A DNA stretch of 6,450 nt from a virus (taxonomy: Duplodnaviria > Heunggongvirae > Uroviricota > Caudoviricetes): the IMG/VR virus record IMGVR_UViG_2698536403_000004; one strand, 5' to 3'. Position numbers and translations under genes: made by a program. Of this stretch, positions 532 through 6,450 are shown in pieces. The notes beneath the pieces were generated by a model. It saw nothing but the letters and a program-made list of their open reading frames with translations. It ran no database searches and had not been told where the DNA came from. Each line of letters begins with the position of its first letter. Position 1 is the first letter of the stretch.

Positions 532-723
532 TTAAAGACCTGCCGGGATTTCGATATTATCCTGGTGAATAACTTTATCGACCGGGTAACAGTTACCGGG
601 AATTTTCTGTTCGGTTGCTGCAGTCATACACTCCTGCATTGTCCTGTGAACACTGACTGCAATATCAACTGGCTCTCCGGAAACAAGAAAAACTGTCAGA
701 ACAAGTGCAAATGCTGTATTCAT
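532..723 (-). CDS. Small protein (63 aa) with hydrophobic N-terminus (signal peptide or TM) and two Cys in the C-terminal part
   Basis: ATG at 723 preceded by AAGGA 8 nt upstream; start overlaps the stop of the upstream gene in an ATGA junction (721..723 / 720..722), suggesting translational coupling. Track ORF 532..777 trimmed to the RBS-supported start. Product MNTAFALVLTVFLVSGEPV... Confidence 0.45.
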   Translation of the reverse strand: MNTAFALVLTVFLVSGEPVDIAVSVHRTMQECMTAATEQKIPGNCYPVDKVIHQDNIEIPAGL

Positions 724-908
724 TGCCAGCATCCTTTTTGTATCGGACGTAAACGGGCCAGCATTGAAAGAATGCATATTTTATTTAATAACTCCCGTTC
801 GTGTTTTCTCTTGTTAATGGCATCTTCAGTAAATACAGGGTTACTGATAGTGACACCAATTTCAAAACAACCTTCAGACGTATTAACGTTTGGTAATAAC
901 GTTTCCAT
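720..908 (-). CDS. Small hypothetical protein (62 aa)
   Basis: ATG at 908 with GAGGA 7 nt upstream; track ORF 720..1013 begins at a non-ATG start with no RBS, so the internal ATG is preferred. Product METLLPNVNTSEGCFEIGVT... Confidence 0.45.
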   Translation of the reverse strand: METLLPNVNTSEGCFEIGVTISNPVFTEDAINKRKHERELLNKICILSMLARLRPIQKGCWQ

Positions 909-925
909 TATCGCGTCCTCAACAA

Positions 926-1073
926 TGAATTTTGTGATGCGGTGCCTGGTGCCTCCAGGTGACGTTAACCAGTTAACAATTAACGCCGGATACAGAGAAT
1001 CCACCCATAACACTGTTTTTGGTTTTAACTGTTCCGCGTGCGCTGAGCCGCATTCACCGCATCACAAAATTCA
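926..1073. repeat. Perfect 19-bp inverted repeat pair (926..944 TGAATTTTGTGATGCGGTG and 1055..1073 CACCGCATCACAAAATTCA) bracketing 110 bp that contains further nested palindromes
   Basis: Arms are exact reverse complements when read directly from the sequence; the interior holds CCTGG..CCAGG and GTTAAC..GTTAAC dyads; located just upstream of the minus-strand gene starting at 908. Confidence 0.8.
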
Positions 1074-1475
1074 CTTTAAAAAGGGCGGCAGAGCAGCCAC
1101 GGAGTAAAACTGATACCGCCAAACGTCACCAGAAAATTGATAACAGAGGGCGTTGCAGCGGGGTTGTCACTTAAGCGTATGGTCAACCTGACAACCCGAT
1201 GTCCTCAACGGGGAAGGAATAACCCCGCCATACTTACCGCCGCGCCATTTCGCGGAGTGCCACAACCGGAAGCGCACGGTCGACGAAAATTTAACGACAG
1301 GTTATCTATGAACCAGCTACCTCGCCGTGCGCTTTCGCGTTATGGTCTGACTTTTCATGGAAATATCCTTTCAGTAAACTGTCAGTGCCGGATGCTCACC
1401 CGTGTCCGGCGCACGCACTCCACCTCACCCGTGGAGAACTCCTTAATTACCAACCTTAGCTTCGTTGGTTAGCTA

Positions 1476-2195: not shown

Positions 2196-2232
2196 TACCC
2201 ATAGGTATTTAAAAAGTAAATACCCATGGGTA
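2196..2232. promoter_or_regulatory. Candidate oL/pL: 16-bp-arm palindrome TACCCATAGGTATTTA-aaaag-TAAATACCCATGGGTA (15/16 symmetric) overlapping a possible leftward promoter
   Basis: Palindrome read directly; on the minus strand TTTACT, a 17-nt spacer and TATCCT fit a -35/-10 pair; the arms contain the same TGGGTATT/TAGGTATT motif seen at oR. Confidence 0.45.
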
Positions 2233-2794: not shown

Positions 2795-3076
2795 ATGGAA
2801 GAATTAAGAATATTTCTCAATTCTCTTTCGTCAGATGAACAGCGTATGTTTGCATGCGAGTGTGGTACCAGCATCGGTTATCTAAGAAAGGCATTGAGTA
2901 AAGGTCAAGTGTTAGGGGCATCGTTATGTGTCCTTATTGAGCGAGCCAGTAATGGTGAAGTTACACGTCAGCAACTAAGGCCTTTTGATTGGATGAATAT
3001 TTGGCCCGAGCTGGAAGATACCAAAACGTTAACACAACCACTTTCTAGGAGCTTGATTCATGAAAATCAAGCATGA
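2795..3076 (+). CDS. ydaS: Cro-like HTH regulator of the YdaS type (93 aa)
   Basis: AAGGAG 6 nt upstream of ATG; divergent from the repressor; protein pattern ...CGTSIGYLRKALSKGQ...IERASNGEVTRQQLRPFDW resembles the YdaS/Cro-like family as I remember it; not verified by search. Confidence 0.55.
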   Translation: MEELRIFLNSLSSDEQRMFACECGTSIGYLRKALSKGQVLGASLCVLIERASNGEVTRQQLRPFDWMNIWPELEDTKTLTQPLSRSLIHENQA

Positions 3077-3485
3077 ACACATCCGCATGGCGATGAATGC
3101 CTGGGCGCGTCCTGATGGCGAAAAAGTTCCAGCAGCTGGAATAACCCAGGCTTATTTTGAGTTGGGTATAACGTTTCCTGAACTGTATGACGACAGCCAT
3201 CCGGAAGCCCTGGCTCGCAATACACAGAAAATTTTCCGCTGGGTAGAGAAAGACACCCCTGATGCTGTTGAAAAAATTCAGGCGTTGTTACCAGCGATCG
3301 AAAAGGCAATGCCACCTTTGCTGGTGGCCCGAATGCGCAGCCACAGTTCAGCCTATTTTCGGGAGCTGGTGGAGACGCGGGAACGACTGGTGAGAGACGC
3401 TGATGATTTTGTCGCAGTGGCGATTGCCGGTTTCAATCAGATGAACCGTGGTGGCCCTGCAGGAAATGCCGTGGTGATGCACTAA
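3060..3485 (+). CDS. ydaT: YdaT-like protein (141 aa), in the cII-equivalent position
   Basis: AGGAG 8 nt upstream of ATG at 3060; overlaps the preceding gene by 17 nt; N-terminus MKIKHEHI matches my recollection of YdaT family proteins; follows the Cro-like gene as in Rac-type prophages. Confidence 0.5.
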   Translation: MKIKHEHIRMAMNAWARPDGEKVPAAGITQAYFELGITFPELYDDSHPEALARNTQKIFRWVEKDTPDAVEKIQALLPAIEKAMPPLLVARMRSHSSAYFRELVETRERLVRDADDFVAVAIAGFNQMNRGGPAGNAVVMH

Positions 3486-6245: not shown

Positions 6246-6450
6246 GTAAGCGTGCAGCAAGAACCGTATTGACGGGGATGTGTTATTCAGTCGGCAGTGC
6301 TACGCGCCAGGGGAGCAGTTCGCCGACCCGGCGTTACGGTCGTCACGAACGTAGGTCCATAACCGCCCGGTCTTCGTTTTCTTATTGCCTGGCAACAGCA
6401 CCGGGACAGGCGTGTCATCAGCATGGAGCTTACCGTCAGTCAGCACATAG
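6246..6450 (-). mobile_element. IS66-family insertion sequence remnant: terminal GTAAGCG end at 6246 and an internally deleted transposase; continues past the window
   Basis: Minus-strand translation gives ...HADDTPVPVLLPGNKKTKTGRLWTYVRDDRNAGS, matching the middle of IS66-type transposases as I remember them, then jumps in another frame to a C-terminal-like tail ...ELLPWRVALPTE-stop; the plus strand carries GTAAGCGTGCAGCAAGAACCGTATTGACGG at 6246, consistent with the 5'-GTAA terminal repeat of this family. Confidence 0.55.
6283..6449 (-). pseudogene. IS66-family transposase fragment with a large internal deletion and frameshift (junction near 6315..6327)
   Basis: N-terminal/middle homology ends after RDDRNAGS (about 6324); the C-terminal tail is read in a different frame (6286..6327) and ends at the stop 6283..6285. 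Confidence 0.5.

Follow-up and report, generated by a model that had tools for sequence, protein, structure and literature searches.

The DNA analysed here, hereafter the window, is a stretch of 6,450 nucleotides from a Caudoviricetes virus record (IMGVR_UViG_2698536403_000004). Downstream of a gene for a DicA-type repressor, it carries on one strand the genes ydfA, ydfB, ydfC, dicF, dicB and ydfD, in that order, which is the arrangement of a Qin-type prophage. Judged from its sequence, the interval at positions 1074-1475, read on the minus strand, is very probably the untranslated spacer between ydfC and dicB in a dicBF operon of this type, and would encode the precursor of the small RNA DicF. 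The explanation of the interval is a long-known locus, DicF with its precursor, and as such is already known. Features of the spacer and its neighbours are collected in Table 1.

Table 1. Features of the ydfC-dicB spacer and neighbouring genes, in window positions, with DicF-like loci of other sequences in the last line
Feature	Position	Strand	Basis
ydfC, 72 aa	1476..1694	-	ORF list; annotated ydfC in 97-99% identical records
Start of ydfC 3' UTR: second in-frame stop TAG and hairpin ACCAAC/GUUGGU (1449-1469)	1449..1475	-	
Local hairpins of the ydfC-proximal module	CUCCAC/GUGGAG 1418-1436; GCCGGA/UCCGGC 1387-1410	-	MFE fold, sequence
Long imperfect duplex, predicted RNase III substrate (5' strand 1325-1343, 3' strand 1262-1279)	1262..1343	-	Inverted repeat, RNAalifold
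Conserved structured core, 115 nt, 5' part of 190-nt long DicF	1152..1266	-	RNAalifold and hand-drawn structure
Single-stranded A/U-rich linker GCCCUCUGUUAUCAA, ending at the DicF 5' end	1136..1151	-	Sequence read directly
dicF, 53-nt sRNA	1083..1135	-	Rfam RF00039; 52/53 bases as in K-12 b1574; seed identical to K-12
DicF intrinsic terminator, hairpin 1084-1120 and U tract 1078-1082	1078..1120	-	Rfam structure line and terminator scan
Perfect 19-bp inverted repeat in the dicF-dicB spacer, outside 1074-1475	926-944 with 1055-1073	-	Repeat search
dicB, 62 aa, cell-division inhibitor, downstream of DicF	720..908	-	Pfam PF05358 DicB, 127 bits, full length
DicF-like loci (upstream of TTTAAAGTGAATTTTGTGATG): L010, L029, L034, L040, L093, L111, L117, L254, L255, L258-L288			

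Thousands of E. coli prophage copies that bear the annotation ydfA-ydfB-ydfC-dicB-ydfD match the flanking 1.4 kb at 97-99% identity, and the gene order is colinear with that of both the K-12 Qin prophage and phage Tritos, each of which has dicF annotated at the homologous place. The window and the dicBF operon of K-12 Qin have in common the order of the dicA-type repressor gene, ydfA, ydfB, ydfC, the spacer, dicF, dicB and ydfD, as well as the terminator and both of the duplexes described below; the spacer from the ydfC stop to dicF runs to 341 nt here and 340 nt in K-12, with 96.8% identity and free of gaps. Beyond DicB, YdfD is confirmed by Pfam (DUF1482, 91 bits), and the 139-aa repressor, which has no Pfam match at E 1e-3, has a homologue annotated as a CI repressor. 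The sRNA itself is matched by Rfam family RF00039 at 1134..1083 on the minus strand, over positions 1-52 of the 52 in the model, with 75 bits against a gathering score of 48 and an E-value of 1e-15. The single DicF base that differs from K-12 Qin is an A-to-G change in the terminator hairpin, from which no functional difference is expected. A sequence-only reading of this DNA had offered a non-coding RNA as one of three candidates, and on this point the Rfam scan and the K-12 and Tritos annotation bear it out, the interval containing DicF and its precursor; what it overlooked is that an annotated sRNA gene, dicF, takes up the 3' quarter of the interval, and that the relevant strand is the minus strand. 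The anti-sRNAs AgvB and AsxR were considered as identities and rejected, because they are located at the PR' moron site and not here.

Unlike the K-12 Qin operon, the one described here sits in a seemingly more complete lambdoid prophage, with a right operon of the YdaS/YdaT type. That right operon (2795-3485, plus strand) opens with YdaS-like and YdaT-like genes (PF15943, a weak match, and PF06254). With a Qin-type left operon next to a YdaS/YdaT-like right operon, the immunity region looks like a mosaic of Rac and Qin. Downstream of the repressor gene, window 2196-2232 forms a near-perfect 37-nt palindrome (TACCCATAGGTATTTA...TAAATACCCATGGGTA), and repeats of ACCTGTGGGTATT are found at window ~2741-2770, where the divergent repressor and cro-like genes are separated; the palindrome and the repeats probably serve the DicA-type switch as operators. 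At its right end (6300-6446, minus strand) the window holds part of an IS66-family transposase (PF03050, E 4e-9), so that an insertion sequence may interrupt the right operon of the prophage.

The interval had been described as rich in GC, and the richness is genuine but modest, 0.525 against 0.48 for the whole window. Values for the neighbours are 0.48 for ydfA/B/C, 0.37 for dicB and 0.44 for ydfD. The excess falls within 1083-1277, with 0.57 for DicF and 0.57 for the structured core, against 0.50 for the ydfC-proximal half of the interval. Taken as minus-strand RNA, the interval is more stable than shuffled versions of itself (z = -3.9, with none of 100 shuffles as stable). A hairpin that had been pointed out near 1385-1412 also exists, as the 6-bp stem GCCGGA/UCCGGC listed in Table 1.

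In K-12, DicF is cut from the polycistronic dicBp transcript, with RNase III giving rise to a 190-nt species and RNase E defining the 5' end of the 53-nt form; that work found no internal promoter, and its RT-PCR spans ydfA to dicF (PMC10448788). The DicF 3' end comes from Rho-independent termination, while on read-through RNA, cleavage by RNase III yields a 72-nt form (PMC5069750, PMC9438474). This mechanism has been shown for K-12 in the literature, and we transfer it to the window from 97% sequence identity. Relief of the DicA-type repressor would allow transcription from a PL-like dicBp to run through ydfA, ydfB and ydfC into the spacer. RNase III would then cleave the imperfect duplex of ~17 bp at 1262-1343, leaving a 190-nt species that consists of the structured core plus DicF, and cleavage by RNase E in the A/U-rich linker at ~1135/1136 would generate the 5' end of the 53-nt DicF, whose 3' end would be set by the intrinsic terminator. 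On transcripts that read through this terminator, RNase III cleavage of the duplex formed by the 19-bp repeat (926-944/1055-1073) would instead produce the 72-nt DicF. DicF, in an Hfq-dependent manner, would base-pair with the ftsZ, manX, xylR and pykA mRNAs.

The elements of this pathway can be located in the window. The predicted RNase III duplex comprises 17 pairs according to RNAalifold, an inverted repeat (1267-1279 with 1325-1337) lying within it, and three of its pairs show compensatory change between DicF-type and KilS-type loci; in the latter the sequence of the duplex differs while the pairing is kept. The 5' end of the 190-nt species falls at ~1272, a position obtained by arithmetic as the DicF 3' end plus 190 nt and accurate to a few nt, which places it within the 3' strand of the duplex, with 6-9 nt left between it and the closing helix of the core. 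Arithmetic likewise puts the 3' end of the 72-nt form at ~1064, in one arm of the 19-bp repeat. By analogy with K-12, the linker would be the junction processed by RNase E, the precise cleavage site in this strain being putative. For the terminator, the scan returned a match at 1100..1085 followed by CCTTTTT. An earlier suggestion that the interval might be a cis-acting site survives in a limited sense only, that of a predicted RNase III-site duplex, an RNase E junction and an intrinsic terminator.

Matches to Rfam family STnc100 below threshold (31-38 bits against a gathering score of 47) were observed at three places: at window 876-1085 on the minus strand, in the dicF-dicB spacer with the 19-bp repeat; at L254:1364-1571; and in P1 (L250:3883-4002), upstream of the putative division-inhibition genes tciABC.

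Between the 5' end computed for the 190-nt species and the linker lies the structured core. Its closing helix pairs 1259-1266 with 1152-1159 (GUUGUGGC with GCUGCAAC), with U-A and G-C pairs in cdtI-type copies where DicF-type copies have U·G and G·U. The remainder of the fold consists of H1 (1251-1255 with 1240-1244), a 4-bp helix P2 (1236-1239 with 1197-1200) that encloses H2 (1223-1227 with 1209-1213), and H3 of about 9 bp (1189-1196 with 1162-1169). Two alignments were used, one of 18 representatives at less than 95% identity and one built with a covariance model from 92 hits, 57 of them distinct. In the core, 95% of cells are paired, against 33-60% when partners are slid; eight pairs have changed on both sides, where the slid controls give 0-4; and the covariation score was reached by none of 500 shuffles. 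H2 is especially variable yet always paired, occurring as CGGGG/CCCCG, CUGGGG/CUCCAG, CAGGUG/CACCUG and CGAGG/CCUCG. A candidate 6-bp pseudoknot (1228-1233 with 1177-1182, GUAUGG with CCAUAC) is compatible with all of the sequences, and shows one compensatory event, in P1 (GCAUGG with CCAUGC), plus one wobble change, evidence that is thin, a motif from this very loop having served to retrieve the loci.

Searching with cmscan found no Rfam family (Rfam 15) for the core at E <= 1 in the window, P1 or cdtI, and at a permissive E-value the window, P1, cdtI and an Stx1c phage returned only DicF and sub-threshold STnc100; ARAGORN found no tRNA or tmRNA. The core may be new: a seemingly undescribed covarying RNA domain of four helices, possibly pseudoknotted. 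A pairing of the attenuation type between the core and the DicF terminator, looked for by eye, was rejected because it is not conserved, the terminator in P1 being unrelated. The GUUGU at 1262-1266 can pair either upstream, extending the predicted RNase III duplex, or downstream, as part of the core closing helix. Since these pairings are alternatives, cleavage could trigger refolding.

Similarity searches show the spacer to be a mosaic, with breakpoints at ~1455, 1433, 1415, 1355, 1266 and 1144. The ydfC-proximal module is found also in phiSTEC1589-Stx1c, a phage without the core. The segment 1144-1266 recurs without DicF, at 76-89% identity, in otherwise unrelated replicons: in phage cdtI and e14/CPS-53-like prophages, where the core lies between a cI-type repressor and the first PL gene, and in phage-plasmids of the P1/P7 type, where it lies ~45 nt downstream of the C1-controlled Pban (Op72). 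The core is always in sense orientation with an intrinsic terminator after it, and among relatives at least six different combinations of seed and terminator are found downstream of the same core. A pattern search of contigs with AAGTATGGN{20,45}GGTTGACCA proved too permissive and yielded little beyond chance matches; L136 (E. albertii) alone was retained from it.

In the ban leader of P1 the core fold recurs in sense orientation, 76-81% identical to the window and with compensatory changes. As in the window, an early promoter under repressor control lies upstream of the core and an intrinsic terminator comes after it; unlike the window, the P1 leader lacks both a DicF seed and an upstream duplex of the RNase III type, and the genes downstream of its core are tRNA genes, tciABC and ban. 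GenBank already labels positions 68791-68892 of NC_005856 (P1) as a "dicF-like region", an annotation of sequence similarity only, with no structure or function given. The P1/P7-type C1 operator/promoter Op72 (ATTGCTCTAATAAATTT...TAATAT) is present at L250:2470-2499 and in L007 at ~2940-2975. Because a strong terminator lies between the P1 core and the tRNA genes, expression of ban from Op72 would need read-through.

A homologous locus upstream of a cell-division inhibitor is that of KilS (b4833), in the kilR 5' UTR of the K-12 Rac prophage. Like long DicF, KilS has its 5' end in the 3' strand of the equivalent long duplex, and like DicF it has the GGUUGU...ACAAC helix, a terminator of the GGCGG type and the downstream block TTTAAAGTGAATTTTGTGATG. 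The two differ in the gene upstream (sieB for KilS, ydfC for DicF), in the seed (UUGCUGUGUGUAGUC for KilS, UUUCUGGUGACG for DicF), and in what caps the helix, which is a 5-nt loop in KilS and an inner core of ~100 nt in DicF. It is this pentaloop in place of the inner core that makes KilS 98 nt long where long DicF is 190 nt. KilS, at L290:1906-2003 on the minus strand and matched to window 1083-1272, lacks the core, and a pentaloop caps GGUUGU...ACAAC in 28 of the 31 extra viral loci (L258-L288) as well as in K-12 Rac (L290). With the Rac helix capped in this way, KilS is the counterpart of the 190-nt long DicF without its inner core, and it looks, on sequence grounds, like a core-less paralogue of long DicF. 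The paper that named KilS does not mention DicF.

Genes for DicF-like sRNAs, with swappable seeds (e.g. UUGCUGUGUGUAGUC, AUGUUGAUUACCUUUU, AUGCGUAGUC) and varied GGCGG-type terminators, occur as variants upstream of dicB or kil in many lambdoid prophages. The one variant scanned with the Rfam DicF model (L254) scored 35.6 bits, below threshold. DicF of Qin, KilS of Rac and the unnamed Stx/lambdoid variants look like a single modular family, one in which a common processing scaffold and terminator are combined with interchangeable seeds upstream of dicB and kil.

As to what the core does, we infer that its role is most likely to shape the processing or the stability of the precursor. Such a role leaves unexplained the strong conservation of the core loops and the presence of the core without DicF in P1 and in cdtI-type phages. 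It is possible, and we put it forward tentatively, that the core is an undescribed mobile module inserted in the tip of the precursor hairpin of the DicF/KilS family, with a function of its own that goes beyond being a passive part of the DicF precursor; control of terminator read-through, binding of a host factor, or setting the course of precursor processing would be examples of such a function. We tentatively rank a role in processing or stability within the precursor above an independent RNA function, and the latter above antitermination.

An independent function might be that of a free-standing functional RNA, either a domain that binds a protein or ligand or a sponge for sRNAs, to which DicF-type seeds are attached as swappable 3' payloads. 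The core is more conserved than the sequence downstream of it, where the payloads change, and a DicF seed is altogether missing from its copies in P1 and cdtI-type phages. Its loop and junction sequences are nearly invariant, and the RNase III and RNase E cuts together would free it as a fragment of ~137 nt. Accumulation of a core-only RNA, however, has not been reported, the dicF probe detecting the 190-nt and 53-nt species (PMC10448788); loop conservation is partly an artefact, as loci were retrieved with the loop motif; and no target or partner has been identified. We regard a free-standing RNA as unlikely.

That the interval apart from DicF is a spacer without function, its folds incidental, seems to us quite unlikely. 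The mosaic nature of the spacer, with modules gained and lost among relatives, agrees with such a reading, as does the ydfC-proximal module, in whose hairpins (1387..1436) no covariation was seen. Opposed to it are the compensatory changes both in the core and in the predicted RNase III duplex, the retention of the core in P1-type plasmids and cdtI-type prophages at the identities given above, and the experimental demonstration of RNase III processing in K-12 (PMC10448788). Absence of function is contradicted for 1152-1343, and stands as the default for 1344-1475.

We consider it very unlikely that the core is a put-like processive antiterminator RNA, acting in phages without N to secure read-through of the DicF terminator and later ones. 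Its placement invites the comparison: in three unrelated contexts the core lies in sense orientation in an early operon under repressor control, an intrinsic terminator follows it at a distance of 20-70 nt, and in Qin-type, cdtI/e14-type and P1 operons alike that terminator must be read through for the downstream genes. The cdtI/e14-type core is just downstream of cI, and that of P1 just downstream of the C1-controlled Pban; Tritos and cdtI, which bear the core, have no annotated N; and the fold is compact and possibly pseudoknotted. The likeness to the put RNAs of HK022, an N-less lambdoid phage whose early operon carries these structured cis RNAs upstream of terminators, is nevertheless one of position only. 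HK022 put consists of two stem-loops with a triplex, whereas the core is a four-helix junction, and putL and putR show no sequence or covariance-model similarity to it: blastn-short of the core against the HK022 PL-nun region gave only chance 9-mers, and the core covariance model had no match in the HK022 PL/PR region at E <= 1. The core is, moreover, optional, the hairpin into whose tip it is inserted being present also at loci that lack it. Among those Rac/KilS-type and other core-less loci for which 3.5 kb or more of upstream sequence is available, 18 of 20 are also without the one N type searched, that of phiSTEC1589 (tblastn), and such phages are a further point of difference from HK022 put. 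Because the search covered this one N type, the core-less loci merely fail to support an anticorrelation between N and the core.

The sequence-only reading had also proposed a decayed gene, pointing to sieB-like genes in this part of Rac-type prophages. That holds for the Rac-type relatives, where sieB, confirmed by Pfam (PF14163, 108 bits), lies immediately upstream of the homologous sRNA, KilS, and genes can indeed be found between ydfC and dicB elsewhere, PPompW and Stx2a phages carrying a cassette of a 135-aa and a 77-aa gene at the equivalent of window ~1455/1456. In the window there is no trace of sieB. Searches by tblastn with KilR, SieB and both cassette proteins found no match in 900-1600, the best that SieB (the 108-bit, Pfam-confirmed protein) produced being a match of 8 residues at E 0.29. 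Pfam scans of all local ORFs were negative for a decayed gene, and conservation tracks base pairs rather than codons. That the interval is the remnant of sieB, or of some other moron once present between ydfC and dicB, is thus highly improbable.

In L003 the cassette (1957-2571) sits directly behind ydfC and separates the two arms of the ACCAAC/GUUGGU hairpin, with the 135-aa gene in operon sense and the 77-aa gene in the opposite sense; neither protein has a Pfam match. The mosaic breakpoint at ~1455/1456 is the insertion point of the PPompW-type cassette (positions 20/21 of the similarity-search query). Because the cassette junctions are clean, the window looks like an empty cassette site, and not like a wrecked gene.

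Coding potential can be dismissed with similar firmness, as the sequence-only reading had already supposed in finding no credible ORF and in calling the plus-strand frame an artefact. The sole long frame is that on the plus strand at 1137-1472 (111 aa, TTG start), minus-strand ORFs being at most 36 aa long, and all six frames of the interval contain stops except one, which is broken by an indel in 17 of 37 homologues. It is hard to credit that either this frame or a tiny minus-strand ORF, such as one of 13 codons with its ATG at 1357, is a real gene: the 111-aa frame is intact in 20 of the 37 homologues, and a plus-strand "hypothetical protein" is called here by some automated phage annotations, but it starts with TTG without a ribosome-binding site, has no Pfam match, is cut to at most 71 aa by a 1-nt indel in the other 17 distinct full-length homologues, runs antisense to the core, ends 1 nt short of dicF, and has nothing annotated at its location in K-12 RefSeq, while the 13-codon ORF, despite an AGGA 7 nt upstream, has its ATG changed to CTG in many relatives (e.g. 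CCCTGAAAAG).

The interval ranks among the earliest known sRNA loci of bacteria, and a false "orphan" region is removed by recognizing it as such. What may be new is only the conserved structured core and the relationship among DicF, KilS and P1: a covarying domain of ~115 nt, with no Rfam entry, that is common to long DicF and to the early leaders of P1 and cdtI/e14-type phages. If the core controls processing or read-through, it would represent an extra regulatory layer in the release by prophages of toxic division inhibitors.
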